Assembly: GCA_036172245.1 (NCBI GenBank)
Contig: JAYWIR010000116.1
Location: 1-64,000, forward strand
From: Raillietiella orientalis
Lineage: Eukaryota
DNA length: 64,000 nt
Direction: 5' to 3'
The notes below the pieces were generated by a model. That model saw only the letters and a program-made list of their open reading frames with translations. It did no database searches and was not told the DNA's origin. Made by a program: the position numbers and the translations under genes. Shown piece by piece: positions 15,943 through 55,669 of this stretch; the stretch's first letter is position 1; each line of letters starts with the position of its first letter.

Positions 15943-17685
15943 GGGGGGTCGACTGTACTGGCGATGCGACGCCCGCAACAACTGTGGGGTCGCGTTTCTT
16001 GTAAAGCCGGCCATCGACGCTGCCGTGAAGGGCGTACGCTTCGATAACGACGGTCGGGTCAGTCAGCTGACTCACAGCTGGTCCGACTCGATTGAATTGA
16101 TCGTCACGAACGTGTACGCCCAAAGCGGGTAAGGGGGATACAGCGACCGTACCAGGTTGCTGGAAACCCTGAAGCGCGATTGGCTGGCGGACACGAATGT
16201 GCGGAAGGCACACCTGATAGCTGGAGACTTCAATCTCCGTCTGCTGTCAAGTGAGCCCTAAGCACAAGAACGCACGTTTAACGAGTTGTGCGCTGCCATG
16301 CCCACGCGCAACTTTTTGGCGAACGCGGAGGGAATGGACCGCAGCATCGACCACTTCTTCCTGGATTCCGACTTGTGCTCCCGGGTCGGCAAACGGGGAA
16401 AAGTTGCGTCGACGCTGTGGGACCATTCCAGCATAATTGCCGAGGTTAGCCTGCGCGAGAAAGGAAACCCATCCAGGGCGTTGCAGCTGGATGAAGACTG
16501 GACGCGGCTCTCAGGTGCGAAGGAACACCTTCGCGAATTCCTGAGAGGCGTCTCTTTCCGCAGTCTCAAAGATTGGGACCTCTGCAAAGCCACGGTCCGC
16601 GAGTTCTGCGAGGAGTTGCCTTTGCACCGCCTGCCCCCCGGATTTGGAGAGGGGGCTTGGAACCATACGGTTTATTTACAGGCCCCTCGGTACGAAGGGA
16701 CCCCCAATGTTTGCCCCCTGGCCGAATATCGAGTCGGGGCCGAGCGGCAAGCTTGGAAATCCGGGTCGGCTAGCTTGCTGGACGACCAGAGTGGAGAGCG
16801 ATCAGCCTCACCCGCGATCAGGCACCTCGTGTGGCGTTACTATTCCTCCCTCTACGCTAGGGCACATCTAGAGCAAGACGCATCGCGCCTCCATCTTCCG
16901 TACGGAGCCCCGGGAATATCGGAGGAGGAGACGATCAGCCTCGACAAGCCTTTTTCTACAGGCGAAATTCTCGCCGGTATCAAAAGGCTCAAGAGGCGGA
17001 AAACTCCAGGGGAAGACGGCTTGCCCGCGAAGTTCGAAAGAGCTGGCACCCCTGCTGCTTCAGCAAACAAGGGTGATTCGAGACGAAAGCGAAGTTCCCG
17101 ACTCGTTTCGGTCAGCCAGAGTGAGGCTCCTTCCGAAAGGGGGAGACCTTAGAGATTTGAACAACCGTCGTCCGATCACGATTGTGAATACGGATGCTAA
17201 GCTGGTTGCCGGGCTATGGGCTTCGCGTCTGGGGCAAGTGGCAGAATCCATGATGAGCCCGGAGCAGACATGTGCTGCTCCCGGGCGAAGTATGGAGGCC
17301 AACCTCTTCTTCGCGAGCACATGAATGCACGCGCAGAGGTGTCAGAAGGAATGGAAAAAAAAAATCGGCAAGTTCACTTTGAGGCCACCAGCAGGGCAGG
17401 GAATGGACTCCCGGGCAGGGAAGGGGGACCTAGCGCTCGCAGTCGGTCTCCATAAGGCGTTCGATTTTCACCCGGATATCGCCGGGGCGTTTATTGTGAA
17501 AATAAACTTTTACAAAGACGTGCGGTGGCTGGACCATTGCTCCAGCAACGCACGAAGAAACACAGAGCCTGCCGGGTCACCGGTTCGCAGACCGGTACGG
17601 TCCACCACGGCAGCAGGGGGAAAGGGAAAAACAACAAAAACAAAACAAAAAAAGAAAAGAAAAGTTGGGAGGGTAAGGGAAGGGA

Positions 17686-20600
17686 TCACAGTTGCTGGTG
17701 GGGCCGTTGCATCCTTGGTAGGATGCCGGCAGGCTCCTTCTGTATTCCTGGATCCAGGTGGGGCCATCGGGACGCCCTCCTCAGGAACTATTAGGCTGAC
17801 TGGATGGCACCCTGGTCGCGTTGTCCTCCCGTAGCCTTGCTCCAAGCGGTGACGATCCCGCGTAGGCAGCACAAAGCTGCTAACGAGGCCGCTGGCCGAA
17901 GGGCGTCGGCAACGAAGAGGGCTTTCAGTGAGTCCATGGGGTTGCCGCAGGGGACTCCGATGGCCGCGGCAAAGCGAAACCAAAGGGGCCGAAGGGCAAC
18001 ACAATCCACTAGCAGGTGGGGGAGGGAGTCCCGTTCCCCACACCTGTCGCAATTGGGGTCCACCGCTACCCAGGTCCAGTGGTGTCGGCGGGCGTTGCAG
18101 GGGAGTCCCCAGTGCTGCAACAGGAGAGCCGACTCCTGCCATTTTAAGGGGAGGGCGGAAGTGTTCATGAGAACCGGGGACCACTTCAGATGTTCAATGG
18201 GAACATCGAGCAGCGCGCCCCAGCGCAGAAGTCCATTGGGGGGCTTACTCGGGGTCGCAGCGTCTGTTGACTGGACCGTCTTCCACTCTCCTATCTTCTT
18301 CTCCTTTCCGGAGATTGTTACTGTAACCACCCACTTCGCCGCAACATCGCTGTCCAGATCTTTCATCAGGGAGGGAAGCGCAGCATCGAGGGGGGTTCTT
18401 CCTGCCCACGCTCTCTTCTTTGGATCCTCCAGGATCTCGCGGAGCGTGCAACTTCTGTAACCCCCAAACAGGAACATTCGTTCCTGTTGGGAGCGTTGCA
18501 TGCCGAACTGTCCCCATCTTCGAACGGTTTCCTGCAACCAGGCACTACCGTTAAACGGGAGACAGGTGAGCAATCCTGGGTTTTTCCGATACAGCGCAGC
18601 CACCCTCCGTAGCTGGAGTCCGCATCGGTTGACGTGGCGACGGAGTGCAAGAAACGACGTCAGTCCCGTCTTGCCGGTGGCTTGCTGGAGAAGGAGACGT
18701 GCAGGGACGCAACAACAGGTGCACCACAACTTTGGAACGAGTGCCGACAAGCCGAACTATAGCTGAAGCTCCAGCCACTCCAGCGTCAGGAGGCCCAGAC
18801 CACCATCCCGACGAGGAGCGCACAAGTCCTTTAAGCGGACTCGGGCTCTCTCGTTGCTCCAAAGGGCGATACGGAGGAGGTCCTTTGTCCGCTTTTTAAT
18901 CCTCTCTGTGGGGGGGCAAACAAAAAGCAGGGGGCGGAGCAGAGGAGCCGCGAACGTGTACCAAACCGCGGCCCGTTCAGGCAGGAAAAACCTGCCGCCT
19001 CGGAACGGGCCGATCGCCGTCTCTACTTTTTGAAGGAAGCCGGACCACGCTTCCGCAGTAGAGTAGTCCCCCAACGGCACACCAAGGTACTTGAAGTACC
19101 TCACCGTGGGGATCCCCGAACGGACCCAGTCCAGCTGCTCTGCCCACGCCGCACCAACTGGCATCACGGACGACTTCGCCCTGTTCACCGTAAGTCCGGT
19201 TCCCCGATGCAGCAGGTCGAAGAACTCCTCGACCGCCGCAGCCGGGGTGGACATAGGGAGCAGCAGCAGAAGGTCGTCCGCGTATGCTGAAACGGCCGGC
19301 GTAGCGGCACAGTCGTGCGGCAGGTGCGCCAGAGTTCCCCTGTACGCTCTCAGTACCAACTCAAAGTAGGTACTGAAGAGCAAGGGGCTCAGGCTGTCTC
19401 CCTGCCGGATCCCACGCCGTACCGGCACGCCGTGCACGGTCTGCCCGCTGAAAGTAACATTGATAAGCGCGTCGCGCCAGCAGGAGAGCAGATAGGCCAC
19501 TAATGAGGCCGGGAAGCCCAAGCGTTCCAGAAGCTCCAGAAGGAGATTCTCGTCGACGCAATCGAATGCTTTTCGCAAGTCGATTGCGACCGCAAGGGCT
19601 CCCTCCCCCGCCCGACCATCCAACCCCTTGCCGGCGCACGCACCGGGATTCCGGCTGCGCACCAACCTCCTTTCATGTTGGAGCTCTAGCCATGTGGAAG
19701 CGTGGAACAGGTTCGCCTCCATGCTTCGCCCGGGAACAGCAAATGTCTGTTCCGGGCTCATGAAGATGTTGGCAACCCGTCCCAGACGCTCTGCCCAAAC
19801 CTTAGTTAGCAGCTTGGCGTCCGCATTCACTCTTGTGATGGGACGCCAGTTGTTCATGCTCCTCAGATCTCCTCCCTTAGGGAGGAGCTGTACCTTTGCC
19901 GAACGAAACGAGGCGGGAACGTCACCTGTTTTGCGTATCAGCAAGATGAGTTGCTGTACCAGGGGGGTAAGCTCAGACGCGAAAGTTTGTTAAATCTCCG
20001 CTGGCAGGCCGTCCTCCCCTGGAGCCTTTCGCCTCTTGAGCTTTCCGATGGCCGAGAGGATCTCGTCCATCGTGAAAGGCTCGGCGAGCGTCTTTCTCTG
20101 CTCCTCCCCGATCGCTGGAGCGCCTTCCGGAAGCAGGAGTCGTGAGACGTTCCTCTCCGGAGATGTCCTGGCATACAGGGAGGAGTAGTAACTCCGCAGC
20201 AGGCCGCGGATTTGGGCAGGTGCCGAGTGCTCCTGGCCTTGATCGTCCAGTAAGCTGGCCGATCCGGACTGCCAGGCTTGCCTGTCGGCTCCCGCTTTGT
20301 ATTCCGCCTGCCTGCGGATGTCGGGGGTCCTGGCGCAACGACGGGCCTGCAGGTAGGCTCGTTCGTTACGGACCCCGGTCCCAAAACCCGTTGGTAGGCG
20401 GTGCAGAGGGAACTGGTCGCAGAACTCCTGGACCGACCGCTTGAAGCGGTCCCAATCCTGGAGGTTCCGCAGACTGAAGCTCCGTATGAACGTGCGGAGA
20501 TGTTCCGCCGCGTCCGGGAGCTTCAGCCAGTCCCCTGGGAGACGCCACGCTGACGAGGGGGGGCCCCTGTCGCGCGGATGGATCTCGAGGACTAGCGGGC

Positions 20601-21267
20601 GATGGTCGGACAGCTCGCACGGTTACTTGCCGCGCCTGCCCACGCGAGGGCACAGGTGCTCGTCAAGAAACACGTGGTCAATGCTGTCTTCCATCCCCGG
20701 TGCACTGGCCAACAGATTACAGGTGTGCACCGCTATGCACACCTCGTTGACCAGGTCACGCTCGGGATTCTGCTCATCTGGTTTCAGGCGAACGTTGAAA
20801 TCGCCTGCAACCAGATGGGCATTCCGAACGCCTGCTTCGGTCAGCCAGTCTCGCTGGAGGGCAAGGTAAAACTCTTTCCTCGCCCTCCTGTTCATCAGGT
20901 CCTTGCCGCTCTGTGCGTACACGTTCGTGACGATCAGATCGATCGAGTCGGACCACCTGAGAGTCAGCTGGCCGACACGACCGTGATCGTCGAACCGCAC
21001 GCCCCGAGCCGCGGCCTCGACGGCTGGCCGAAGCAGGTAGGCGACACTGCAACTTTTCGCTCTCCCACACCTGTACCATAGCCGCCCTCCGGAGATCCGT
21101 TCGATGTCTTGCGCTTGTTCTGCAGAGATCACGTGGATCTCCTGTAGCAGCGCAAGGTCGTAGGACTCCAGAAGGGCGGCCATGTCTCGTCTCCTGCCGG
21201 CGTCTGTCATGCCGTTCACGTTCCAAACGCCGATGCGCAGACGACGACGGGAGGAGATTCGCGGCAT
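17686..21267 (-). pseudogene. A1 ORF2 (APE-RT-zinc finger), several nonsense lesions
   Basis: WNVNG, LQEIH, AGDFN, SIDHVF, SDH; 395-aa RT ORF with AYADD; CDRCGERDSLPHLLVDC. Confidence 0.92.
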
Positions 21268-22943
21268 TACTGCTGGGAAGATTAAGGTGTGGGGGAGCCC
21301 TCCTCTTGCGAGGCGGGCGGGATGTTCATGGGGGTTTCGGCCTTCTCAGGCACCTGAGGCACGTGTTCGGCCTCCACCCCCTCCATCCCCTCCGTGTCCG
21401 CGCGTGGGAGTCTCTCGGGCGACGGGTCCGGAGAGTTTCCCACGCTCATGGCACCCTCGCTTGCGGAAGCCATCTTTTCCCCTTCGACGGGGAAGGCGAG
21501 CTTCCTTGGATTTGTGGACTTACGTCCAGCCTTCTTGCGCGGTGCCGTGGAAACGGAAGCTCCGCTTCCGGCATTCCACCTCGGAGTCGGAAGTGAGGGA
21601 CTCCTGAGGGGAGGCCGGACGCCTTACGGCCTTCTTGCCAGGCTTAAGGGTTCTGGCTGCAACGAGGCTGCCAGCTCCTCCGCGGCTCGCGCGAAGGCTA
21701 CTTCATCGATGGTGGTGTCGATGACGGACGCCGCCGCCGGCTCGCTCCCCTCGCTGTTGACTGTGTCAACAGAGGGGAGGTCGTCGGTAGCGGCGAGTTC
21801 TTTCCGGCAGCGTTCGGCAACATCGAGAACGCGTTCGACAACAACGCTGCACTCTTTAATTATCGCGCTACGCTGGTCTTTCTTCTTCTGCTGGTAGGCG
21901 ATTTTCTTTTCAATCCTCCTCTCCTTCTTTGATTTTTTGGCCGTTGCCACTTGCCACTCAGTCTCCTGGCCGGCTCCCTCAACTTTTTCGGCGTTGGTCG
22001 CCGGGGTCTCGGGTGCGGCCTGGGTCTTGGGCGCGGGTGGCACAGCCTTTGCGGCAGCTTTCGCCGCCAGTCTTTTCTGCAGAAGCTATGCGCGTTTTTT
22101 AAGGATTCTCTTGGCAACCACCCGCACTGCTGCTTTTGGGCACACCTCCCTCGTGTGGCCCATTGTGCCGCATACTTGGCACTGCACATTGGGACACCTC
22201 TTGTTGAGGTGGCTTGACGTATTGCAGAAGCCACATTATTTCGGCTTCCCCACATACCAGAGGTCGACGGTTTCGCCTTCGACCACCAGTTTGTGGGGAA
22301 GAGTGCAGCCCTCCCGAACGGTCACGCGTGCAGCAGTGAGGCCGTGTTGCAGCCCCGTGTAGTCCTCGAAAGTACTAACTTTCGTCCACTGCGCGTGGAC
22401 CGTTCCAAACTGTTCTAAAGGGGCGCGAACCTGTTCTTTGCGCATTCGCGCGGTCACGCCTAACAGGTGGACCACCATGCTGCGGTCCGCCGTAGTGGGG
22501 AGAAGCCTGCGCGTCCCCATCACAACGGGGGTTTTAAGCAGTCGTTGGGCCAGCTCTGCATGTTTGCAGATGACCTCAATGTACTGATCCCCGCTGCGGA
22601 TGGTCATAGCGCTGAGCTCCTCCTGTTTCACATCGAGAGCGCGCATGCCCTTCGAGAAGGCGCGCGCGCTCTCTAAAGAATATAAATTGCCTACCTTGTA
22701 GAACAATGAGGGGTTGTACCCCTCCTCTACATAGGCCGACAATTCCGCGGCGGCTGCAGGCGATGGCGCCGACACAACGGCGCTCCACGCCCGCGCTGCA
22801 GCGGGGACCGATTCTGTAAGAGCGGATGCCTCCACCTCTATCGCCTCTGGGGGCGACGTTGCCGCCGCCCCCTGGCTCTCCATCGCCTCTGGGGGCGGCG
22901 TTGCCGCTGCCCCCTGGCCATCCCTGGTGGTCGCGTCAGGCAT
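21267..22943 (-). pseudogene. A1 ORF1 (gag-like: putative RRM, two CCHC knuckles, disordered tail), with stops and frameshifts
   Basis: Starts MPDATTRDGQG; DLWYVGKPK* followed by the knuckles; ends SQQ* overlapping the ORF2 ATG. Confidence 0.85.
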
Positions 22944-25141
22944 CGCTGCCTGATCGACCACCGAACCACACGACGCTTGCACTGGGGGAGAGTTCCTGGC
23001 AAGAGGAGCACCGAGAAAACACTTCCACCCTGGAGCGCACAAGGTGTTCGACTGTGTAGACCAGGAACTCCTCTTGGAGCTCCTGGGTCGCATGGGCTTC
23101 TCACCCTCCCTGATTTCCTACCTGCGCTCTTGCTGGCGGAATGCGTTAATTACCGTCTCTTTCAGCAATCACAAGGTGCATGGCGTGCCGGTGCGGCGGG
23201 GCATAAGGCAGGGAGATAGCCTCAGCCCCCTGCTCTTCAGCACCTACTTTGAGTTGGTGCTGAGAGCGTACAGGGTGAATTCGCCCCCTTTTTGAGCTCG
23301 TTTTCCGGTACGCTCGCCGTAGCAGGGTATTGCGACGAGCTTTTGCTTCTCTTACCTATGTTTACCCCGGCGAATGCGGTCGGAGACTTCTTCGATCCGC
23401 TCAGCCGTGGGACCGGACTGCAGGTCAACAAGGCGAAGTCGTCGGTGGTGCAAGTAGGTGCGGCTTGGGCAGGGCAGCAGTACTGGGTCCTTCTGGGGAT
23501 CCTTACGGTGAGGTGCCTGAAGTACCTTGGTGTGCCTTTGGGAAGATTTTCCCCTGCGGAAGCGTGGTCCAGCTGCCTTCAAAAAGTTGAGACGGCGATC
23601 GGTCCGTTCCTGAAAGGCAAGTTTCAGTTATCGGAACGGGCCGCGGTTTGGAACGCTTTCGCGGCCCACATCCTCCGCTCCTTGCTTTTTGTTTGCTTCG
23701 CCTCCAGAGAGTGTAAAAAGAGGACAAAGGACCTCCTCCGCGTAGCCGTTTGGGGCAAGGGGAGTCCCCGAATCCCTCTTAAGTATTTGTGCGCTCCTCG
23801 TCGGGACGGAGGTCTTGGCGTCCTGACGCTGGAGCGCGTGGAAATCCAGCTGCGGTGGCGAACCCTCGCCATCGCAGCGAAGATGTGGAGCACTCCTTGG
23901 TGTGTTCCGGCCCGCCTTCTTGCCAGGCGTGTGTCCCGATGCTAAGGACTCGCGTCATTTCTTCTGTTCCCTGGCCGGAAGATTCGAAGAAGTGGCCTTA
24001 TGCTCGGACGCATAGCAATCCTGGCGAAGGCGAATGGTTGGATAGTTTGTGGCCCCTCTAACTTCTTCGCCTTGCTGGAAGGAGACTGCTTGCACCTGGG
24101 TCAAGCAGAACCGAAGAAGCAAAGATAATATGAAGTGCCTGCGAATCGGCCCATACGATAACCGCACCCTGAAGGAAATACTGGAATTTACCCGGAGTGT
24201 TAGGTAGACGTTGACGACCCCTTGTGCTACGGCGATGCCCTTCCTCCGGAGGGCGCTTTAAAACCGCCAGAAGCCGAGGTGACAAGTCTCTTGCAGGATC
24301 GCAGGCAGGGAGAATATGTTAAGCGGCTGGACCACAGAAGAACTGGCGGACGCCACGACCCCGAGCGTCCAGCCGCGAGGTTTGACGAGATGGGGCGAGC
24401 TGCTCGCCATCCCTGCGGATGTGCTGAAGTGGTCCCCGGTACTCCAGAAATCCAGGATTCTGCCCCTTAAGTGGCAAGAGTCAGCTTTGCTACTGCTGCG
24501 CTGGGGTTTACCTTGCAACGCTCGCCGCTTCCACTTGACAAGGGAAGCTGTGGATCCTGAGTGTTCCAGGTGCGGAGAGGGGGAATTGCTCTAACACCTT
24601 ATTGTGGACTGTTCTGCCCTCCCACCCTTCTTTGCGAACGGTTTGAAACGACCCTCGGGCCTTCTAGGGGCAACACCTTTAGGGAAGTTTTTCGTCTTCT
24701 ATTCGTGAAGGACGCCCTGCAGCCAGCCGCACTCCTCGTAGCCTTGTGCTACGTCCGAGGCATCGTGGCGGCATGAAGGGACATCAACAACGGAGTGGGT
24801 TCCCACGCAAGGGATGTCATCCCATATGCCCAACGCTTCTTCCGGAGAGCTGCCGGATGGCTTAACTGGGGAGTATACGGATGGACCTCGAGGGCTTTCT
24901 TAACGGATGCGCCATCCGCTCAGTGACTAGTGATTCCTTCCCTGCCCTCCAACTTCTTTTTGTTTGTTTATTTTTTATTTATCTTTTTGTTTTATCTTTA
25001 TCTCCCTTTGCTGCTGAGGAACCCTACGCTTGTCCTCGTCCCGGCGTCCCGGCAGGTCCTGTGTATATGGCCGTGAGCGAAGCCTTGTACCGCGGATTAA
25101 GAGTTTATTAATAATCGTCCCGGGCTTACGCGGGTGTCAAT

Positions 25142-26296
25142 TACCAATAGGCCCTGCTAAGGAGGAGTTAGCCATGAAGGAGGAGGAGGAGACAGTTCAC
25201 AACCGCTTTCCCATGCCGTCCGTTCCAGCCGAGGAATCGGCACCCATGGAAGAAGGGGAGTAGTTGCGAGAAACCCGCCCCCTTCCACCGTTGCGGTCTG
25301 CCGAGGAATCGACCTCATGGAGAAGAGAGAACCGGTGCACGGTGCTCCCATTTCTCCATCCGTTTCGCCCGACCAGGTTCCGGTTGCCCCATTGTCACTT
25401 TCCTAGAAATAACACCTGGGCTCGCATGTCGCCGTCGATTACGCGTGACCTGCTGGAACATCAACGGGCTGCGCGACGACGGCAACAGACGAGATACGAC
25501 CGCCACCCTGCGTGACTTCGACCTGTTGCTCCTTCAGGAGATCCACGTGATCACCGCGGATCACGCCCAGGAGATCGAGAGGATCGCAGAAGGACGGTTG
25601 ATGTGGCATTGCGGCGACCGCAGCACCTTCGGTGTCGAGTTCTTTCTTAAGCCAGCCGTCGACGCTTCCGTGGGGAGCGTGAGCTTCGATGACAAAAGTC
25701 ATGTTGGACAGATGATTTTCAGCTGGCCTCCGACACGATCGGTCTCATCATTACCAACGTGTACGCTCCGAGCGGTAGCAATGGGCACGCGGAAAGAATT
25801 CAGTTTTACCAGCACCTGAAGCGGGACTGGCTGAATGACGCGGGTGTGAGCAATGCCCACCTGATAGTCGGGGTCCTTAACCTCCGCCTACTCTCAGATG
25901 CGTGCTGCACGCAAAAGAACGTGCTGATGGAGTTGTGCTACGCAATGCGCGCGAGCAACTTGATGGTGGGACACCCGCAAATGGAGAACAGCATCGACCA
26001 CGTTTTTCTCGACCACGACCTGTGTACTCGAGTCGATAAACGAGGAAGGCTCCCGTCGATGTTGTCCGACCATTTCCGTCTTATCTTCGATGTTTGTCCA
26101 CGCGATAAGGCACTGCCATCTAAGGCGTAGGGTATACCAGGGGTTTCTACGAGGCTCCCAGGTGCGGCAGATCATTTCCGCCAATTCCGTAGGGGCGTTA
26201 TCCTCCGGAATCTCGAGGCTTGCGACGTCTTCAAGCGTTCGGACAGCGAGTTCTGTGAGAAGTTTTTTCGGGGCCAGCTTTCTTCCGGATTTAGGG
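25142..26296 (+). mobile_element. B/C-like fragment: ORF1 tail and APE, ending at the SGF linker (host of C3)
   Basis: APMEEGE; TCWNINGLRDDGNRR, NVYAP, SIDHVF, SDH. Confidence 0.85.
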
Positions 26297-31310: not shown

Positions 31311-31697
31311 ATGAGCTTAGGCTTTCAAGAAATGTCAGCACGACAACAGCTGAGGGTCCTCGCAGCAATCGATATACTGAGCAAATGGGTAATGAGGACT
31401 CCATTTGACGCGGCATACCTGAGCGAGAGCCTTTGGAAATTCATCAGAGAAGCAAGCCAGCATGACGACATTGAAACAATACCATTCATTGCTAACTATT
31501 TGAAAAAGAAACTCCGGGATAGTGGAATATCCACAATTGGAGATCTGCACCTACTACTCAGCAATAGTCAGTATAAAAGGAAGCCGTTTCTAGAAAGTAT
31601 AACCGACCTCATAGGCGATTATCGACCGGATACTAAGGAACAACTGAGATTTTTTGCATTAATCCTGTACTGCCGGATAGCATTTAAAGGCGAGTGA
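31311..31697 (+). CDS. 128-aa helix-hairpin-helix protein, putative barrier-to-autointegration-factor (BAF)-like
   Basis: Intact ORF, CGCCATG start, same length as the 55019-55405 paralog; ungapped by-eye alignment to BAF (F10, E13, I26, L30, KKL32-34, G38, F59, E61, D65, G68). Confidence 0.7.
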   Translation: MSLGFQEMSARQQLRVLAAIDILSKWVMRTPFDAAYLSESLWKFIREASQHDDIETIPFIANYLKKKLRDSGISTIGDLHLLLSNSQYKRKPFLESITDLIGDYRPDTKEQLRFFALILYCRIAFKGE

Positions 31698-31770
31698 AAT
31701 CCAAAAACTGCAGATAAGAAAAAAAAGAAGAATGTTCAAGTGATGAATCTAAAAGACACAAAAATATACC

Positions 31771-32065
31771 GGGTTAATTTAGGTTAGTTTAGTTTAAGTA
31801 TGGTTAGTTCAAGTTAAGCAGGGTGAGTTTAGGTTAAGTAAGATTAGTTGAGATTAAGTAAGGTTACGTTAGGGTAGGTTAGGTTCAGTAAGGTTGTCTT
31901 ATGGTACGGTAGGTTAAGTTAGGGTAGGATAGGTTAGGGTACGTTAGGCTAGGGTAGGATAAATGAGGGTGAGTTAGGTTAGGGTAGGTTAAGTTAGGTT
32001 ACGCAGGATAGGTTTGGTGATGTTATGTGACGTTAAGTTAAGTTAGGTTAGCTTAAGTGAGGCTG
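31771..32065 (+). repeat. Degenerate pentamer array, (TTAGG/TTAAG/GTAGG)n
   Basis: e.g. GTTAGGTTAGGGTAGGTTAAGTTAGGTTA with about 5-bp periodicity. Confidence 0.9.
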
Positions 32066-32089
32066 AGTTCGGTTGTTTTCAGACTCCGT

Positions 32090-41000: not shown

Positions 41001-41420
41001 ATCCTCTCGGCCATCGGAAAGCTCAAGAGGCGAAAGGCTCCAGGGGAGGACGGCTTGCCCGCGGAGTTTTATCAAACTTTCGCGGCTGAGGTTACCCCCC
41101 TGGTACAGCAACTCACCTTGCTGATACGCGACACAGGTGACGTTCCCGCCTCGTTTCGTTCGGCAAAGCTGCGGCTCCTCCCTAAGCGAGGAGGTCTGAG
41201 GAGCATGAACAACTGGAGTCCCATCACAATAGTGAATGCGGACGCCAAGTTGGTGGCTAAGGTTTGGGCAGAGCGTCTGGGACGGGTTGCCAACATCTTC
41301 ATGAGCCCGGGACAGACATATGCTGTTCCCGGGCGAAGCATGGAGGCGAACCTTTTCCTCGCTTCCACCTGGCTAGAGCTCCAACATGAAAGGAGATTGG
41401 TGCGCAGCCGGAATTCCGGT
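38027..41420 (+). mobile_element. Element A2: 5' UTR, ORF1 (38121-39796) and ORF2 from 39796, truncated before the RT KAFD motif
   Basis: Near-identical inverted copy of A1 19640-23037; MPDATTRNGQG; TAATG junction at 39794-39798. Confidence 0.93.
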
Positions 41421-42968
41421 CAGTCCGTCAGTCATGCGACGGATGGTAGGATGGAGGAGATCCACTCCCTGCCCTGCAGGCGGCCTCAAAGTGGGGTTTC
41501 AGATTCTTCCTTTCCCTTCCTTTTCACACCTCTGCGCGTGCATCCATGTGCTCGCGAAGAACAGTTTGGCATCCATACTTCGCCCGGCAACAGCATATGT
41601 CTGCTCCGGGCTAATTATGGATTCTGCCACCTGCCCCAGACGCGAAGCCCATAGCACAGCAACCAACTTGGCGTCCGTATTCACAATCGTGATCGGACGC
41701 CAGTTGTTCAATTTTTTAAGGTCTCCCCCTTTCGGAAGGAGCCTCACTCTGGCTGACCGAAACGAGGCGGAAACATCGCCTTCGTCTCGGATCAGCCTTG
41801 GCATCTGAAGCAGCAGGGGTGCCAGCTCTTCCGCGAAGCTCTGATAGAACTCCGCGGGAAAGCCGTCTTCCCATGGAGCTTTCCGCCTCTTGAGCCTTTT
41901 GATACCGGCGAGAATTTCGCCGGTGGTAAAAGGCTTATCGAGGCTTAACGACTCCTCCACCCCTATTTCTGGGGCACCATCCGGAAGCAAGAGCCGCGAG
42001 GCTTCTTGATCCGGGGGCGCCCTGGCGTAAAGGGAGGAATAATAACTCCGCACGAGATGCCGTACCGACGCCGGGGACGAACATTCCTGGCCCTGGTCGT
42101 CCAGCAAGCTGGCCAACCCGGATTGCCAGGCTTGGCGTTCGGCCCCGGCGCGGTACTCGGCCAGGCGACGGAAATTAGGGGTTCGCTCGTACCTTCGAAC
42201 CTGTAAATAGGCCCGATGGTTGCGAGGACCCGCGCCGAATCCGGATGGCAGGCGGTCCAGGGGGAACTGCTCGCAGAACTCCCGGACCGATTCCTTAAAA
42301 AGGTCCCAGTCTTGGAGATTCCGGAGCGTGACGCCTCTCAGGTATTCGCGAAGGTGTTCCTTCGTACCTGAGAGTCGCGTCCAGACCCCTGGCAGACGCC
42401 AGTCCCTGGATGGAGGTCCTTTGTCGCGAGGCCGCATCTCGAAAATTAACCGGGAATGGTCCGACAACGTTGACGCAACCCTCCCCCGTTTGCCGACCCT
42501 TGAACACAGGTCAGCGTCGAGGAAGACGTGCTCAATGCTGCGGACCATTCCCCTCTCACCCGCGAACAAGTTGCGCGCACGCATGGCGGCGCACAACTCG
42601 TTCATCGCGTTCACTTGTGTTTCCGGCTCACCTGTTAGCAGGCGGAGATTGAAATTTATCACCCGGTCACGCCGGGGCGTTTATTAATAATAATAAACTG
42701 GTCAGGGACAATGTCCTTAACCAACAGAACGACAGAGAACATAGAAAAATTACCGGCACGCAGGCCTGGTAAACAAACCGCTCGCAGCGCGGGAGGAATG
42801 AGGGGAAACAAACAAAAATCAAAACCTGGAGGGAAGGGTAACGGGTTTTTGGTTAGGCTCCGTAATCACGGGGATTTACACGATGAGCACCTAAAAGGTT
42901 CCGAAGCCTATGGGGACGCATGTGTAAAAAGAAAATACAAATTTAGTTTATGGAGGGTAGGGCAATGA

Positions 42969-45900
42969 TCATCGGGTTGGCCGCTGATGAGAATGTGTAA
43001 ACCGGCGGTGTATTGCGGAGAGATTCCTCTTTGTCTCCTCTGTCAAATGAGGCCATCTAGCGGATGCTCCCATGTAGAAAGATGCTTTGCTGATAACCTC
43101 TTGGTGCTGTCCGTTGATCACCAACGCCTGGCGGACGGAAACTATCGCGCGTATGCAACCGATGGTTGCAATCCTTGCGCTTAGTGAAAGCCCGCTCGGC
43201 GTGAAGAATCGTCGCAGCAAGTCTCTTGCGGTGTCCACGGGATGCAATAGTGCTGTTGCCAGCCTACGCCACAGTCCTTGTAGGACACCGCAGTCCAGAA
43301 GTAGGTGCGGAATCGACTCCGTCGATCCGCACCGAACGCAGTTCGCAGACGCAAGTCCCCCGGAGTCACGATGCCAACGCTCGTTGCACTGAAAACCCCA
43401 GTGAACGAAAAGCAGCACGGCTTGTTTCCAAGCAAGGGGGAGCAGCGAACTGTCAATACACTGTGGAGGGACTACAAGTTCTTCTGCCCATCGGAGGAGT
43501 CCCTTTGCAGTAACACGAGGAGTGGCGGCGTCCGCCAACTCACTTGTCTTCCAGGTGCCAAGGAGTTTGGTTCTTCCCGCTATCGTGCAGGAAACCTCCC
43601 AACTCGCCGGTTGGTAACTGTCGTTTCTTGCCCTGAGAGCAGACAGCGCTGCGGCAAGAGGCGTGGCAGCCAGGGTAGAAAACTTCACCTCGTCCTGCAG
43701 TACTTCTTCCAAGAATCGTGGAAAAAATTGGCGCAGGGGGCGAAGACCTTCAGGGCGTATTCCTTGGAACGCCGCCCAGGATTCAACAGACTCCTGCTGC
43801 CAAGCTTCAAAGTTCATTGGGCGGCAGGAGATCCAAGTGTGTGCTTCCAGAAGTGCGGTCAACTGCCGCAATGGAAAACCGAAACACCGCTTCCTGTATT
43901 CAGTGCCCGGCAAAAGCGAGAGAAATCCTCCGCTGCCGGCGCATCTCCGCAGGAGAATGCGAGCTGGCACACACAGGGGGGATGTCCATAGCTGGGCACA
44001 CAGTGCCAGCAGTCGGAACTGCACCTGCAGTCCGATTCGCACCATTGTCAGGATACCCAAACCAGCATCCCGACGCGGAGCTGACAAATCTTTAAGGCGG
44101 ATCCTGGATCTCGCCGGACCCCAGAGAGCGTTCCTGAGCAGGCGCTTAGCCCGCTGTTTTGCCGCATAGGGGGGGTCCAAAACAAAAAACAGGGGACGGA
44201 GGAGGGGGGCCACAAAGGTGTTCCAAATAGTCGCCCGTTCCTGCAAGGTAATCTTGCCGTTAAAGAACGGGCTGATGGCCAACTCTGCTTTCTGAAGACA
44301 GTTCGCCCACGCTTCGGCTGCGCCGAAAGCGCCCAACGGAACGCCAAGGTACTTAAAGTACCCGCCGGTGGGGATCCCCAGGCGGATCCAGTCGGACTGC
44401 CCCTCCCACGACGTACCCACAGGAACGACCACGCTCTTCTCTCTGTTCACGCTCACGCCCGCTCCCCGACGAATCAGGTCGAAGAAATCCTCCACACTGG
44501 ACGCCGGGGTGGACATGGGGAGCAGAAGAAGCAGGTCATCAGCGTAGGCGGCCACGGCAGGCGTTCCCGGGCAGGAGCTTGGCAAGTGAGACAGCGTCAG
44601 CCTGTATGCACTTAGCACCAACTCAAAGAAGATGCTGAAGAGCAACGGGCTTAAGCTGTCGGCCTGTCGGATGCCCCTACGAACGGGAATACCATACACG
44701 CTGCAGCCGCTAAAAGTGATGCAGGTTAGCGCGTGCCGCCAGCACGCGCGCAAATACAGCAGGAGTTGCGCCGGGAACCCAAGGCGTTCCATAAGCTCCA
44801 AAAGCAGCTTCTGGTTTACGCAGTCGAACGCCTTGTGGAGATCGACCGCGACCGCCAAGGCACCTGGCTTTCCCTTCTGCCGTCGGCGCCTGTTCTTTTT
44901 GCCTGCGGCAGTGACTTTCGCAGCAGCCTGGCTTCGCTGCGCCACAACTTCCTGCAGCTGCATCCATGTACGCGCGAAAAGGATGTTCGCCTCCATGGAT
45001 CGCCCCGGAACCGCGTAGGTTTGTTCCGGGCTCACCACAGATTCCGCGATTCTTCCTAACCGCGCGATTTACAGCTTGGAAAACAACTTGACGTCCGAGT
45101 TCACCAAGGTGATCGGACGCCAGCTGCTAAGTTGGCGCAAGTCTCTGTCTTTCGGCAGGAGACGCACCTTCGCTGAGCGGAAGGAATCGGGGACATTCCC
45201 GGATTCACTCATCAGCGTCGCGAGTTTCAGCATCAAGGGAATGAGCTCCACTGCAAAGCACTGATAAAACTCTGCAGGGAGCCCATCCTCGCCTGGCGCC
45301 TTTCGTCTCTTCAGCCCAGCGATGGCGGACGAAAATTCATCCGCCGTGAAGGGCTCGTCGAGACGTTCGCGTTCCTCCTCGCCGACAACACGAGCATCCT
45401 GAGACAGGAGTATCTCAGAAAGAATATCCTCCGTCGGGGATTCCGCGTAGAGCGAGGAGTAGTAGCGTCTCACAATGCGGCGTACTTCGGCTGGGGCCGA
45501 ACATTCCTGGCCCTTGTCGTCCAACAGGCATGCTGCTCCGGACTGCCAGACCTGGCGCTCGGCTTTCGCCTTGTACTCTGCGAGACGCCAGACATCCGCG
45601 CGTCTCGAAAACGTGCGCGCCTGCAGAAAGTCTCTACTGTTGGCCACGCCCTCTCCAAAACCGCGTGGAAGCCGGTGCAAGGGGAATTGGCAACAGAACT
45701 CGCGGACAGATCTTTTGAGATCGTCCCAGTCCGCAAGTTCTTGAATGGCAAAGCCCCGGAGGTATCCACGTAGATGCTCCGCAGCCTCCGGTTGGCTAAG
45801 TCAATCCGCTTGCATCCTCCAGCTTTGCAACGGAGGCCCCCTGCCTGGCGGAAGGATCTCAAACTCCAACCTGTGGTGGTCAGAAAGCTCAGTCAACAAT

Positions 45901-46541
45901 CTTCCTCTCCTACCCACACGCGAATGCAGGTTTTCATCGAGGAAAACGTGATCGAGCGATCTTTCCATTCCAGGTTCGCTGACCATCAAGTTGGCGGCGT
46001 GCACGGACGCGCACATCTCGATGGTCAGCGCGCGCTCCCTCGGGCGGCTCCAATCGTCGGAGAGCAGGCGGACGTTGAAGTCCCCAGCGACGAGGTGCGC
46101 CACTTGGAAGCCGGAGCTGTTGAGCCACTGGCTCTGCACCTCACCAAAGAAAGCTACTCTTTCTTCGAGGTAGCGAGAGCCACTCGGCGCTTAGACGTTC
46201 GTAACGACGAGATCGATGGACTCGGACCACTTGATGACAAGCTGGCCTATCCGTCCGTTGTCATCGAAACGAACACTACGCACCGCTTCCGCCATTTTTC
46301 CTCTTACGAGGAACGCGACGCCGCACGTGTGTGCGCCGCCGCACCGCCAATGAAGCGTTCCGCCTGCGCGCTCCTCGATTTCGGCTGCCTGCTCGTCGGA
46401 GATTACGTGAATCTCCTGCAGCAGCGCGAGGTCGAAGGGGCGCAGGGCGTTGGCTACTAATCGCCTCTTCTCGTCGTTCTGCAGTCCGTTCACGTTCCAA
46501 CACGTTACGGACAGACGACGAGAAGACGCGATTCCCCGCAT
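42969..46541 (-). pseudogene. E ORF2 (APE-RT-zinc finger) with a few stops
   Basis: WNVNG, LQEIH, AGDFN, SLDHVF, SDH; 689-aa ORF with DLHKAFD, AYADD and CVRCGSTESIPHLLLDC. Confidence 0.93.
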
Positions 46542-48488
46542 TACTGCTGGGAAGGTGGCGGCTTTTTGCTCGCTTTATCCGGCGAGTAGACGGCGAGCAG
46601 CACGACTGGCAGGCGGGGACGGTCGCCACCGTCCTCTGTCGTGCTGCATGCATGTAATGCCTCCACGCCAGGCTGAACCCCGTCGGGTTTCGTGGAGACT
46701 TCGCGTTGCTTCGCGGCGAGCGTTGCCTGGCTGCCTACTTTTGATCGGCGCGCACACGCTTTCGAACGAGTTGTCCTCGTCTCGGTGATCGGAACGGCAT
46801 CCATTTCGGAGTCCGACCGGCGCATGTTCGATCGGGTTTCGGCCTTCCGCGAAGCAGTGACAGGTTCTGCTGGATTGACAGCTGTCCTGTTGTCTTTTTC
46901 CGTCTCCAGAGCATCGCTTTTGGTGACGGCTGCTTTCCCGGCGCGCGCGTTTTCAGCGTGCTCACGCGCAGTTGCACGAGGGACCTTTGCTGAAGTCTTC
47001 TTTACTTCATTACGGTTCCTCACTTCGCGTGGCGCCGTAAATGGAGATTGTGCTCCATTGCCATCTTTGAAGCCATCAGCGTCTTTGGACGGGAGCACTT
47101 TCGATGGCTTCGACACGCTCGTCATGGACGCTGCTTTCCGAAGGGCTTTCAATCCCTTCGTTGGCATGGCATCCGCGCCAGTCGAGAGCTTGCTCTCCGA
47201 CTGCGACGGCGTGAGATTTTTCTCCGCTTTCGCGGTGTTGGATCGCGACGCGGATTTTTTTTTGCCGACTTTCGAAGTCGACACGGCACAACCCTTCTTA
47301 CCCGATTTGGGCTTCTCAGCCACTGCAGGAGGTGAAGGAATGGATCTGACGGTACTGGAAGTGTCCTTACCGCCGTTGTCCATTGGCATCCCCGCCGGTC
47401 GCTCGAACTCCGAAAGAGCCGGGCGTGCTTGGGAAGGACAGCTATTGCGCCTAGGGGGACTTACCATTGCCCCGGATTCCCCGCACCCTTTCTTTTGCGA
47501 CTCCCCTGCCGCGAGAGGGGGCGCGCAGGACTTCGCGTGCGAGGTTTCCTGCTGCTTTGAAGCGACATTCCGCCTCGCGTTTTTTCGGAATTTCTGCCTT
47601 GGGGTCTCCAGATTTTTCGCAGATTTTTTCTTTTTATCCGCGCTTTGTTTCTTAAGATGAAGCTCCGCGGCTGCCTTTTTTCGCAAAAGATCCGGGCAAT
47701 TTTTCAATTGGTGCCCGGATAGTTTGCAATAACGGCATTTTCCAGAGGGGCATTTATCCAAACAATGCCCCTCCCTCCCGCATTGCTCGCACGTTCTTAC
47801 TTTGCCCGCGAACCACAGGTGAACGACCGTGTCTTTCACTTGTAGTTTCGTGGGCAGCAGACGGCGGTCCGGCATTGTAAGCCGGACTCCATCGACTCCG
47901 CTGTGTATGGACGGGAAGTCCTTGAGGTTGCTACGCATCCTCCACAGCGCATGGACCGTGGCGAATTTCGCCAACGCGTTCCGAATATCAATATCGGATT
48001 TTTCCGACTCGATGTCGAAAATCTCCGCCACAAATGAATCGTCCATGGCGTCCGGGAAGACCTTCTGCCCACGGATCGACAACGGGTGGCGCAGCAAAGC
48101 GTTGCACAAGTGCAGCGTCTTTGCAACGCACCTTGAAATAGCCCATGTCTTTTACGGGCATAATGGCGAGAAGGTCCTCCTCCCGCACGCCAACAAGGGT
48201 CAGTTCATCGTTGAACTGATTCCCGTCGCGCGCAGAAAGAAAACCACTCAACTTATATCGGAGAGCAGGTCTATAGCCTTGGGCTACGTATGCCCGCAAC
48301 TCCGACTCGTCGAGTGGTTTCCCTTTGACGGCTGCTGTGGCAGCAACGTCAGCAAAACTCCTCTCCATTGGCGAGAAAGACGAAGTGGAGGCGGCCGTAG
48401 GTTCCGCGATTGCAGATCCGGATGCCGTTCCTCCAACTTCAGTAGCTTCAAGTTGGGTCGACATCGTCGTCAAAATGTACGACGCCAA
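46541..48488 (-). pseudogene. E ORF1 (gag-like, two CCHC knuckles, long basic tail), one frameshift near 48110
   Basis: 166-aa plus 522-aa ORFs; CEQCGREGHCLDKC and CRYCKLSGHQLKNC. Confidence 0.88.
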
Positions 48489-50858
48489 GATGAAGCGGAT
48501 GAAAGCACGGAGACGAGAGCGAAGAAAAACACGTCCGCACTCGATTGAAATCTCCCGCTATAACGTGAGCCTTCCGCACGCTCGTGTTCGCCAGCCAGTC
48601 GCGCTTCAGGGATTCAAGCAGCCTGGTACGGTTGCTGTATCCCTTTTGACCGGTTGGGGCGTACACATTCGTGACGATCAGATCGATCGAGTCCGACCAG
48701 CCGAGAGTCAGCTGACCGACCCGACCGTCGTCATCGAAGCGCACGCCCTTCACGGCAGCGTCGATGGCCGGCTTCACGAAGAACGCGACCCCGCAGGTGT
48801 TGCGGATGCCGCATTGCCAGTACAGCCGACCCCCCGCGATCGTCTCGATCTCCTGGACGTCTGCCGCGGTGATAACGTGGATCTCCTGCAACAGGGCCAG
48901 GTCGAACTCCCGCAGGGTGTCGGCTGTATCTCGCCTGTTACCGTCGTCGCGCAGCCCGTTGACATTCCAACAGGCCGCGCGAATCCGACGGCGACTGGCG
49001 AGCCCAGGTGTTACTCCTGGGAAGATGGCAGTGCGGCGTCCGCCACCTGCTGGGGCGGGACGCTAGGTGGAGGAGGGGGGTCAGGTGCTGAAGGCACCTG
49101 GTCCCCCTCCTCCATCGGTGCCGGCGCGTCGGCCGGATCACCCGCAGGTGGAGTCGCGCCTACCTGTTCGCCCTCCTCCATGGAGGCGGGCTGTTCAGGG
49201 TCGGAACCTGCAGGGGAGACTTCACCCCCCTGTTCACCCTCCTCCATGGGGGTGGCCGCATCGACGACTTCCGAGCGTGGGAATTCCTCCTCCGAATTTC
49301 CCACGCTGGCGACGGCTTCCGTCTTCTCCTCCTCGCTGGTGGAGGGGAGGCGCCTCCTGGGCTTCTGGGACTTGCGTCCCGACTTCCTGGGGGGTGCCTA
49401 CGAGGAGGAGGATGTGCTTCCGGCCCCCAGGTCTAACTCACCTGTGGGGGCCTTCTTCGCCGGAGCCGGCCTTCGCACGGCCTTGCGCGAGGGGTTCTCA
49501 CGCTCGGCCAGCGTGACCGCGAGCTCCTCCGCCGCCTGCGCGTCCGCGGCGTCCGCGGCTTCGACCGCCGCTATGTCGCGCGGCTCACCCTCTGTATAAA
49601 CAGAGGGTTCGCAGTCGCGAGCCTCGGGCGCAGCGGAAACGGCAAGGGGAGGATCGACGCTCCGGGTGGCAATCTCGGGAACGACGATTCGTTCGAGTGC
49701 CACCGTGCACTCGCGCAGAGTTTTCGAGCGCGGACCGGGTTTTTTCGGCTTTCCGGCCGTCTTGCGCTCTTTGCTCTCCGCGGGTGGGAGTTTCCTCGGC
49801 TTTCTGGCCTCTACAAGCTTCCATCCCTCTTCGCCTTCCACCGTTTCAGATGGTTTATCCTCCGGCTTACGCTCCGGAGGTTGAGGTGTTGGCAGCTTGT
49901 GCTGGCCCTTTTCTACTTTCGGTCTAGTGACCTTTGAAGCACGTTTTCCCTGCGCTTTTTTCGCGGCAGGGGGAACCGTGGTGGGGCGTTTGGGACACAC
50001 GCGCCGAACTTGGCCCCGCTCCCCGCACAAATGGCATTGTATATTGGGACACCTTTTACGTAGGTGTCCCACGGTATCACAATGCCCTTAATACCGGGGC
50101 TTCCCTACATACCACAGGTCGACGTTTTCCTGCGCCACCTGTAGTTTGTGGGGAAGCCCACAATTCTCCTGTACGGTGACCCGCGCTGCAGCCTGCCCAC
50201 CAAAAAGGCTATCGAAGCCGTCGAAAATAGAGGGTTTCGGCCACAGTGCGTGCACCTCACCGTCCTTTCTTAATTCCTCACCAACCGCTGACTGCGTCAT
50301 GCGGCTGGTGATGCCAGTCATGTGGACCACCACGGAGCGGTCCATTGATACTGGCAGGATCTTTCGGCCGTCTACGTTCAGCGGCGCATGGATTAGGCGG
50401 TGAGCCAAGGTGACATCTTTGCAGACCACCTCGACCCGCTGCCCGCCGCTGAGGACGGAGAGGCCGTCCAGATCCTTCTCAGTAACGTTCGCGTCCTTCA
50501 ACGCTTTGCTGAAGGCGCGCGCTGTCCGGCCGTCGAACAAGTTGCCTACCTGGTAGACAAGCGATGGCTTGTACCCGGAGGCCTTGTATGCGGCCATCTC
50601 CGCTATGGCTTCTGCGCTGGGCGCGGCCACCATGGCGCTCCATGTCCTCGGCGTGGCCGGGGATGATTCCGGGGCGGCTGCCCCTGCTCCAGTAGGCTGT
50701 GGGGGCGAACTAGCCTCCCCCACTCCCACCTCCATCGCGGTGTCCTCTGGCGTCGTGGCCATTGGACACCGACGATGTACACAAAACACCACACAGAAGA
50801 AAAAGCGCTTTCCTACTACTCTTTGGGGAGTGAAGGAAAAACGCGTCCTCCAACTGGC

Positions 50859-52252
50859 CGCGGAGGGGTCTGGCTGCAACGATGCAGCCAGCTCCTCCGC
50901 CGCACGTTCGAAGGCGGCGTCATCGATCACGGAATCGATGACGGACGCTTCCGCCGGTTCACTCCCCACGCTGTTGACATATTCAACAGTGGGTTGCTCG
51001 TCGGTAGCAGCGATTTCTACAATGCGACGTTCGGCGGGGACGCGTTACACGACGACGCTGCATTCTTCTAAATTCCCGCTAACCTGCTGTTTTTTATTTT
51101 GGTAGGGGAGCTTTTTTCGATTCGTCGTTCTTTCTTCGACCTTTTTTTCTTTTTCGCTGTGACTTCTTGCCATTCCATCACCTACCCGCTTTTGTCAATC
51201 TTTTCGGCATTCGTTGTCGGGGTGTCGGCTCAGGCCTGGATCACGGGATTGGTTGCACAGCTTGAGCGGCATCCTTCGCCGCCAGTTTTTTCTGTAGCAG
51301 CCGCGCGCGTTTTTTTAGGTTCCTCGCGGAAACCACGCGCACAGCGGATTGTAGACACACTTCCTTCGTGTGGCCCATTGTCCCGCATACCAGGCACTGT
51401 ACATTGGGGCACCTCCTTTTGAGGTGTCCCGACGTGTTGCAGAAGCCACAGTATTTGGGCTTCCCCACGTACCAGAGGTCGACGCTTTCTCCGCCGACCA
51501 CCAGTTTGTGGGGAAGGGTAGAGCCCTCTTAAACGGTTACAAGGGCAGCTGTGAGGCCGCACTGAACTGTGGTACAGTCCTCGAAAGGACTAGGCTTGAT
51601 CCATACTGCATGGACCGTGACTTTTTTTTCCAACGCGGCGCGTAACTGTTCTTTCCGCATGCGCGCGGTTACTTCTAAAAGGCGGACCAGCATACTGTGG
51701 TCCGCCGTAACGGGAAGGAGCCTGCGTGTCCCCATTATCACGGGGGTTTTAAGGAGCCGTTGGGCCAGATCTGCATGTTTGCAGATCACCTCTACGTACT
51801 GCCCCCCGCTACGAATGGTCATAGCGCAGAGCTCCTATTCTTTAAAATCGAGAGCGCGCATCCGCTTCGAAAAGGCGCGCGCACTCTCAGCAGATTACAA
51901 CTTTCCTACCTTGTAGAATGGTGATGGGTTATAACCTTCTTCCACATAGGCAGATAATTCCGCCGCGGCTGCAGGCCATGGCGCCGACACGACGGCGCTC
52001 CACGCCCGCGCTTCAGCGGGGACCGGTTTTGTGGAGGCGGACACCCCCACCTCCTTCGCCACTGAAGGCGACGTTGCCGTCGCCCCCTGGCACTCCATTT
52101 CTTCAGAAGGCGACGTTGCCACCGCCCCCTGACACGTACTGGTGGTCGCGTCAGGCATTACTGCCTGATCGACCACCAACACACACGAAGCCTACACCTA
52201 GGAACGGTTCCCGGCACGAGGAACACCGTGGAAACACGTCCGCTCTAGCCAA
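50859..52252 (-). mobile_element. Diverged A-family copy A3: 5' UTR and ORF1 up to LQPDPS (host of B2)
   Basis: MPDATTSTCQG at 52158; knuckles CGFCNTSGHLKRRC and CLVCGTMGHTKEVC. Confidence 0.9.
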
Positions 52253-52277
52253 CGTAAATCTTTCGACTGCGCTCGAC
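52253..52277 (+). other. About 25-bp remnant of an RT KAFD target site
   Basis: CGTAAATCTTTCGACTGCGCTCGAC versus F1 CGTAAAGCGTTCGATTGCGTCGAC (778-801). Confidence 0.7.
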
Positions 52278-52409
52278 AACTTAATCAGGTAATTGTGCTC
52301 GTGTGTGCCCGGAGAGGGGAAGTATTTCGGACGAAACTACAAAAGAAGCGGCGAGGAGATCGCGGCAAAAGACCTGCAGTGGTCCCGTGCAGCAAGACCA
52401 GATGCCAGG

Positions 52410-55405: not shown

Positions 55406-55473
55406 AACCCCAAAACTGCAAATAATATAAAAAATTTTTTAAATGGTGATTCTAAAATGTGCAAAGATGTACC

Positions 55474-55668: not shown

Positions 55669-55669
55669 C

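Follow-up and report, generated by a model that had tools for sequence, protein, structure and literature searches.

Target-specific LINEs (long interspersed nuclear elements) have been described for ribosomal DNA, telomeric repeats, small-RNA genes, microsatellites and DNA transposons. Within the L1/Tx1 group, homing into other transposons is established, as described in the passages of two papers drawn on here (PMC4494074, PMC4640811): Tx1 inserts into the piggyBac element Tx1D, Tx1-Mar into Mariner-N4_AMi and Tx1-9_AMi into Harbinger elements (PMC4494074). The locus described here is a 64-kb stretch of Raillietiella orientalis (assembly GCA_036172245.1, contig JAYWIR010000116.1, positions 1 to 64,000), hereafter the window, on which all results rest. 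It contains three copies (n = 3) of a LINE type designated family A. Each of them abuts, in antisense orientation and in a common register, codons for (R/H)KAFD, which belong to motif A of the reverse transcriptase (RT) of LINEs. Judging from the sequence, family A is probably a target-specific LINE of the L1/Tx1 type, with the (R/H)KAFD motif-A DNA of other LINE families as its preferred site. Such an element would resemble the Tx1-clade LINEs, so far as the cited passages describe them, in combining an apurinic-type endonuclease (APE) with an RT, in occupying one fixed position in another transposon family, in exploiting a multicopy 'safe' target and in having precise junctions.

Family-A insertions at the KAFD codons

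The first copy, A1, lies in a C-type LINE, C1 (letters here and below designate individual LINEs of the window). The features of this insertion, in which TSD denotes the target-site duplication, are as follows.

17465..23037, minus strand: A1, full-length family-A LINE of 5573 nt with APE and RT
17451..17464, plus strand: left TSD copy of 14 bp, CATAAGGCGTTCGA, in the His-Lys-Ala-Phe-As(p) codons of host C1
23038..23051, plus strand: right TSD copy, CACAAGGTGTTCGA, followed by the remainder of the C1 RT
12837..25157, plus strand: C1, the C-type LINE that hosts A1, with its 5' end GGACGTG at 12837 and its 3' end near 25157

A1 is bounded in C1 by a 14-bp TSD, as an earlier note on this DNA had claimed, and the two copies of the duplication differ by two transitions. 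On the plus strand, the left junction reads ...GTCGGTCTC CATAAGGCGTTCGA / TTTTCACCCGG and the right junction reads ...CCACCCTGGAGCG / CACAAGGTGTTCGA CTGTGTAGACC. Across the insert, the RT of C1 reads ...LAVGLHKAFD / HKVFDCVDQELL... (also given as ...LAVGLHKAFD / HKVFDCVDQELLLELL...), the coordinates in open reading frame 2 (ORF2) being amino acids 595 / 592. In uninterrupted RT paralogues, the 14-mer is present in a single copy. It follows from the geometry of A1 that the primer strand would be the host sense strand, ending ...GCGTTCGA-3', and the first-strand nick is predicted to fall directly after the last base of the left TSD copy (TTCGA^CTG). Besides A1, C1 holds a second nested antisense insert, a D-type fragment at about 14827-15941.

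A public read run, X1, was found to contain 0.23 of the sampled words. On positions 17000-23500, at 85% likeness, it gave 279 short contigs, of which those listed were 201-366 nt long and mostly 85-95% alike. Among the contigs listed, there was no joint skipping 17465-23037 and no loose end at 23037/23038; one C1-like contig of 357 nt ends 3 nt beyond 17464. This placement decides neither for nor against the reading of A1 as an insertion.

The second copy, A2, lies in a D-type LINE, D2.

38027..41459, plus strand: A2, family-A copy with an intact 5' end and with the 3' 2.1 kb missing
35940..38026, minus strand: D2, host of A2, the 3' part of a D-type LINE from ORF2 amino acid 591 to the 3' end

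The earlier note had placed the 5' end of A2 against a KAFD 14-mer in a host of a different family, and this was borne out. The 14-mer of D2, CGCAAGGCGTTCGA, read as the reverse complement, occupies 38013-38026 and directly precedes the first base of A2 at 38027. A2 is 95.5% identical to positions 2-3435 of A1 over 3435 nt, whereas identity between the host flanks of the two copies is 64.3% over 661 nt, and the drop in identity falls at the first base of the element. Distance matrices were built from 750 nt upstream and 800 nt downstream of the motif. In the upstream matrix, C1 groups with A3 (84%) and J; in the downstream matrix, D2 is an outlier, which is 61% identical to the 3' part of C1 and nearest to E at 70%, and it represents a distinct family. 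Since the inserts are 95.5% identical while the flanks are at 64% and the hosts belong to different families, a block duplication is rejected for A1 and A2, in agreement with the earlier note. By their sequences, A1 and A2 are separate insertions.

The third copy, A3, is represented at its target by a short stretch.

52253..52289, plus strand: target remnant of A3, CGTAAATCTTTCGACTGCG plus about 18 nt that are still RT-like (CVDN..)

The first base of A3 is at 52252 on the minus strand, and the KAFD-like 19-mer CGTAAATCTTTCGACTGCG begins at 52253 on the plus strand, in the same register as the targets of A1 and A2. In 3/3 copies, the alignment gives exactly 18 nt from the target edge to the end of the GGA(C/A)GTG motif, made up of an 11-nt leader and the motif itself, and the constant spacing noticed earlier is reproduced. 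With about 10 RT motif-A sites among 128,000 strand-positions, our own arithmetic gives a chance of about 8e-5 for each random end, and of about 6e-9 for the second and third matches combined in exact register and orientation. The target 14-mer also has six matches in the window against 0.28 expected. However, this excess reflects the many RT paralogues and is therefore no test of insertion.

Ten RT motif-A sites were examined, with the low-GC RT at 56242-57654 left out. The three occupied sites (in C1, in D2 and in the remnant) all read TTCGA/CTG, and all carry TTCGACTG. Seven sites are empty: TTCGACTG is found in F, E and P, TTCGATTG in N, H and A1 itself, and the site of J is degenerate. 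The site in A1 is as follows.

19561..19575, minus strand: motif-A codons of A1 itself, CGAAAAGCATTCGAT and then TGCG, with T and not C past the presumed nick; unoccupied

The sites of A1, H and N (19561-19579, 12001-12019 and 778-796) have TTCGATTGCG, a synonymous GAC>GAT change past the presumed nick. This change could represent target immunity or ordinary C>T decay.

Family specificity and two further antisense sites

Seven terminal full-length 5' ends are present. The A-type ends are at KAFD in 3/3 cases, those of C1, G and M are at LPxGFGxG codons, and that of E is elsewhere; KAFD is abutted by 0/4 of the non-A full-length 5' ends (C1, G, M, E). Twelve 3' ends were recognised, either by eye or from their conserved terminus, AATAAACGCCCCGGCG...CCGGGTG(A-rich). 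That of A1 is at KAFD (site 1), that of J at the LPxGFGxG codons (site 2) and two of D-type at an endonuclease-coding site (site 3), and the other eight are elsewhere or unassigned.

Site 2 corresponds to amino acids 317-324 of the A1 ORF2. It has four antisense junctions in one register.

12825..12836, minus strand: example of site 2, where host H resumes and abuts the 5' end of C1 at 12836/12837
33898/33899: site 2, junction P/G
4091/4092: site 2, junction M/F
26289/26290: site 2, junction K/J, a 3' junction

The hosts H, P and F are different elements. The sequence of each continues from a point 9-12 nt upstream of the LPxGFGxG Gly codon, where the 5' end (GGACGTG) of C1, G or M, respectively, lies directly against it. 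The 3' end of J abuts K just after the same Gly codon. Taken together, the 5' and 3' junctions imply a duplication of 12-14 bp.

Site 3, GGGGGGTCGACTG, is part of the sequence that encodes the endonuclease in C-type LINEs, and has two D-type 3' ends in antisense. One belongs to the fragment nested in C1.

14814..14826, plus strand: left duplication copy at site 3, GGGGGGTCGACCG, in the endonuclease-coding region of C1
about 15943-15955: right duplication copy at site 3, GGGGGGTCGACTG; the 5'-truncated antisense D-type insert lies between the copies

The other is the 3' end of D2 itself, which is located in the endonuclease-coding site of G, at the homologous point (GGGGTGTCGGCTG/TTTATC, 35927-35939). 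The two events are separate, since one insert is truncated and the other reaches at least amino acid 591. Site 3 is empty in A3 (about 48830) and was lost in B through a 162-nt deletion (9414-9428 site). The idea of a single nick core, TCGA^CTG, for sites 1 and 3 was weakened by the D-type junctions, which fit TCGACTG^T, 3 nt off the A-type position, when a T>C change in the left copy of site 3 is allowed. The C-like families use the LPxGFGxG codons and the D-type family uses the endonuclease site, in antisense and with duplications of 12-14 bp.

The chimeric copy A3

A3 is split by a nested LINE, and its parts are arranged as follows.

48543..52252, minus strand: 5' part of A3, with the A-type module, then a C-type 5' end, ORF1 and ORF2 amino acids 15-184
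42655..48542, minus strand: E, full-length LINE nested in sense in A3, with a duplication of 8-9 bp (plus strand, GATTGAAA(T))
41460..42654, minus strand: continuation of A3 beyond E, ORF2 amino acids 182-576

In the earlier note, A3 had been described as a diverged family-A copy. This holds for its A-type 5' module of 1.39 kb (52252-50849), which is 77% identical to positions 12-1391 of A1. The rest is a complete C-type LINE, which begins at 50848 with its own GGACGCG (GGACGCGTTTTTCC) 5' end, 5' hairpin and ORF1, and A3 is a chimera. The claim of three different hosts likewise stands for A1 in C1 and for A2 in D2 but not for A3, the host of which is a remnant of about 37 nt. As a whole, the interpretation given in that note is partly supported. 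Only about 19-37 nt of the A3 flank are RT-like, and the remainder has no counterpart in the window; the flank may represent a host that was truncated, or a piece carried along by 5' transduction from an earlier KAFD site.

Directly past this remnant starts the second copy of a low-GC (about 40%) LINE-like family. The two copies of this family (29685-32060 and 52300-55700) are 69-73% identical, and each terminates in degenerate repeats resembling TTAGG/TTAGGG (31779-32055 and 55481-55666).

The insertion of E is not at a recurrent site, and the KAFD of E itself (44823-44837) matches the target and is unoccupied. The minus-strand C-type piece at 41460 can be assigned to A3 because element B (7241-9917), 83-91% identical to A3, runs collinearly through the point at which E splits A3. 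The internal junction between the A-type and C-type parts is common to A3 (50848) and B (7473), and the copies are 84% identical. The fusion in sense of an A-type module, ending at about position 1391, with a C-type element represents either a propagating chimeric family, formed by a template switch, or a duplicated nest.

At 41459/41460, A2 (plus strand) is fused tail-to-tail to the C-type ORF2 of A3 (minus strand). A2 ends there at the A1-equivalent position 3435, with its 3' junction lost, and the breakpoints are 28 nt (A2) and 40 nt (A3) upstream of the positions of their own KAFD 14-mers. Such positions fit a cleavage hot spot at these motifs, although this is circumstantial. The fusion may have arisen by deletion between two motif-A sites that had been cleaved, or may be what remains of an A copy in the KAFD of A3.

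Other layouts were considered for this region. That the 3' part of D2 is the missing 3' half of A3, with A2 inserted into the KAFD of A3 itself, was rejected as a simple reading because the D2 part is 61% identical to the 3' part of C1, whereas the A3 piece is 84% identical to the 5' part of C1; a mosaic element joining the 3' part of D2 with A3 may nevertheless have existed. An insertion of A3 into the KAFD of A2 was discarded, as the remnant 14-mer matches the site of A1 itself at only 10/14 positions. Twin priming or inversion as the source of the K/J and A2/A3 layouts was rejected, since the geometry does not fit.

Classification of family A and the surrounding LINEs

The window is a pile of nested non-LTR (long terminal repeat) retrotransposons almost throughout, with 55-62% GC, and scans of it with Rfam and for transfer RNA and transfer-messenger RNA gave zero matches. 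In ORF1 of the elements, CCHC knuckles were read by eye, and a Pfam search of ORF1 gave no domain match. ORF2 encodes an apurinic-type endonuclease, an RT and a C-terminal CxxC..HxxxC motif. A1 runs from the 11-nt leader and GGAAGTG through a 5' hairpin, a frame-shifted ORF1, ORF2 and a 3' hairpin to the tail GGGTGAAAA. Its ORF2 has the APE endonuclease, the RT and the C-terminal CxxC..HxxxC, and it contains three in-frame stops. With these stops read as X for the domain search, Pfam matched Exo_endo_phos at amino acids 40-248 (E = 4e-11) and RVT_1 at amino acids 489-757 (E = 1e-20). The top PDB match of ORF2 is human LINE-1 ORF2p (E = 2.4e-42), and R2 proteins match at about E = 1e-12. A total of 61 protein homologues were found, most of them unnamed; the best are 24-30% identical and several have zf-RVT. 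Among the distant homologues with names are RT proteins of frog and fish and L1-like proteins of plants. The homologues gave no pointer to a family.

The hallmarks of target-primed reverse transcription comprise the 14-bp duplication and tail of A1, a 13-14-bp duplication around the 5'-truncated D-type insert and the 8-9-bp duplication of E. With an ORF2 of endonuclease and RT, nearest relatives of L1 type and these hallmarks, family A is, by its sequence features, an APE-type LINE of the L1/Tx1 superfamily.

Two kinds of RNA hairpin were found in the elements, and that at the 5' end of family A is conserved in all three copies.

22920..22962, minus strand (A1), 38101-38143 (A2) and 52135-52177 (A3): conserved family-A 5' hairpin, GGTGGTCGATCAGGCAG..ATGCCTGACGCGACCACC

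The folding z score of this hairpin is between -4.1 and -6.2 in the three copies. The conserved 3' hairpins have z scores of -1.8 in A1 and -2.3 in E, and two D-type ends are not significant. The 3' hairpins and the family-A 5' hairpin are likely cis signals. Just downstream of the 5' hairpin, a 42-nt unit is repeated twice (22836-22918 in A1 and 38146-38228 in A2). An exact scan of metagenomes for the family-A 5' hairpin gave 0 stretches, and a protein-guided metagenome scan with the 699-amino-acid ORF of E gave 24 pattern matches, of which 0 were confirmed.

Elsewhere in the window, long LINE frames at 18757-21345, 42969-45800, 10876-12426 and 49398-51044 are broken by single in-frame stops. 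Over these four frames, 12 stops were tabulated, 7/12 of them TAA and the others TAG or TGA; they are read as decay and not as a variant genetic code. At 62792-63487, a 348-bp unit is present with a tandem duplicate at 94% identity, and it includes a LINE 3' terminus (AATAAATGCCCCGGCA...).

Proposed mechanism and alternative explanations

If family A is specific for this target, its endonuclease would nick the sense strand of the host RT between the A and the C of GCGTTCGA^CTG. The freed 3'-OH would prime reverse transcription at the 3' end of the A RNA, which has the small hairpins and GGGTGAAAA, and the opposite strand would be cut 14 nt upstream. A full-length cDNA would then be joined at the invariant 5' end, that is, at the 11-nt leader ahead of GGA(C/A)GTG. 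With the primer on the host sense strand and the second cut 14 nt upstream, the expected outcome is an antisense insert that has the 14-bp duplication CRYAAGGYGTTCGA on either side and splits the catalytic Asp motif of the host. The most economical cause would be an APE endonuclease that is sequence-specific, like those of R1, TRAS and Tx1-type elements (PMC1919474, PMC7265360, PMC4640811, PMC4494074). We infer that the endonuclease, and not another component, reads the site at these nick positions, and that the rule would hold genome-wide.

Several observations weigh against such a specificity. The sample is very small, with three copies from a single 64-kb stretch. Only A1 among the three A-type copies shows both junctions, and the mismatch between its TSD copies (2/14) is rather large given the 4.5% divergence of A1 and A2; A1 may be a recombinant of two A copies from different hosts. 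A3 has a C-type ORF2 yet sits at KAFD, and C-type 5' ends are otherwise at GFG; its position is therefore not creditable to an A-type endonuclease without an extra assumption. An older A insertion, trans-mobilisation or 5' transduction would be needed. Three sites with a matching TTCGACTG, those of E, F and P, are empty. The ORF2 of H is 82% identical to that of A1 over the compared regions, and the 3' end of H is elsewhere; the endonuclease region of H is not present.

It is unlikely that the sites are set by homology or DNA structure and not by a family-specific endonuclease. In the first case, an R-loop of the element RNA with the host antisense strand would expose the sense strand to nicking and priming; in the second, the inverted repeat GCAGTCGA..N14..TCGACTGC would act as a hot spot. 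Either could accommodate the fact that 3/3 recurrent sites are conserved ORF2 codon blocks that are also carried by the inserting element, and that 9/9 junction events at these sites are antisense. The inverted 8-mers GCAGTCGA and TCGACTGC are indeed present in the motif-A region, and the position of A3 at KAFD despite its C-type ORF2 would be less of a difficulty. However, such a mechanism is hard to reconcile with the distribution of the families, as A-type ends are at KAFD in 3/3 and at GFG in 0/3 cases, and those of C1, G and M are at KAFD in 0/3 and at GFG in 3/3. The junctions are precise to the nucleotide and the duplication length is constant, as with endonuclease-defined targets, and E (in sense), H, N and F use other places. 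A mechanism of the R-loop or structure type is not known to be established for APE-type LINEs.

It seems quite improbable that only a progenitor or a few A copies targeted KAFD, and that the KAFD piece of A3, and perhaps others, came from 5' transduction, the transcripts having started in the old flank. Strict site-specificity would in that case not apply to family A as a whole. The flank of A3, where about 19-37 nt of RT-like sequence give way to unique sequence, would suit this explanation, but the flanks of A1 and A2 run on as RT genes for more than 650 nt, and a later deletion, or the adjoining low-GC LINE inserting there, would account for the remnant equally well.

That the A-KAFD junctions all descend from a single ancestral one, copied by segmental duplication, unequal crossing-over or gene conversion, can be given very little credence even in a cluster as heavily rearranged as this one (with the tail-to-tail A2/A3 fusion, composite blocks common to 12837-15933 and 33899-37044, the chimeric junction common to A3 and B, and the 348-bp tandem duplication), since identity falls from 95.5% to 64% exactly at the junction between hosts of different families, A1 has a proper duplication and host continuity, and conversion tracts between A1 and A2 would have to end exactly at the first base of the element.

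The target specificity proposed for family A may be part of a wider pattern, although this extension is tentative and on balance doubtful. A guild of LINE families would each possess an endonuclease for a different ORF2 codon block (KAFD, LPxGFGxG or endonuclease-coding), insert in antisense and disrupt the target ORF2. Synonymous changes at an element's own site, such as TTCGAT in place of TTCGAC in A1 and in the related elements H and N, could then provide self-immunity. If such a guild exists, reciprocal hyperparasitism alone would give rise to nested LINE arrays, such as centromere-like clusters, and keep them confined, and a transposon arms race would be taking place at the level of catalytic-motif codons. 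If the rule proposed for family A holds genome-wide, it would provide a sequence-level mechanism for the growth and confinement of nested LINE clusters, in which transposons would put competitors out of action and at the same time find a safe harbour in them. It would also make available a set of related APE endonucleases, each recognising a different site of 10 bp or more, which would be useful for work on the evolution of specificity.

Comparison with known systems

In the literature searched, which does not cover the original Zepp papers, no report was found of a LINE with the RT catalytic-motif codons of other LINEs as its fixed target, or of several LINE families that each have a separate ORF2 codon target. 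By description, the present cluster is similar to those of Zepp and ZeppL in green algae, which, in the passages of PMC3446292 and PMC8226300 drawn on here, are clusters of nested copies of the L1 superfamily that are GC-rich compared with their surroundings. The likeness lies in the nested-cluster habit. Zepp nesting leads to tandem arrays of 3' ends (PMC8226300), unlike the antisense nesting at codon sites described here. No codon-level target or antisense rule was seen in these passages, which do not include the original 1997 paper (PMC3446292, PMC8226300).

Cnl1 of Cryptococcus, as presented in part of PMC9942834, is a LINE that prefers to insert in its own copies and forms nested arrays. 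Its nests are in tandem (same) orientation and subtelomeric, whereas the elements of this window insert in antisense into RT or endonuclease codon motifs and across families (PMC9942834).

In the insect elements R1, TRAS and SART, according to the abstracts of PMC1919474 and PMC7265360, an APE endonuclease makes cuts in the two strands of a defined sequence, giving precise duplications or deletions, which is similar to the junctions found here. Their targets are 28S rDNA or telomeric repeats and they belong to the R1 clade, whereas the ORF2 studied here is nearest to L1 ORF2p. The Tx1-clade LINEs, in the passages cited at the outset, target DNA transposons and small-RNA genes. Unlike them, family A appears to target the catalytic-motif codons of LINE RTs, always in antisense, and several LINE families of this cluster each have an ORF2 site of their own.

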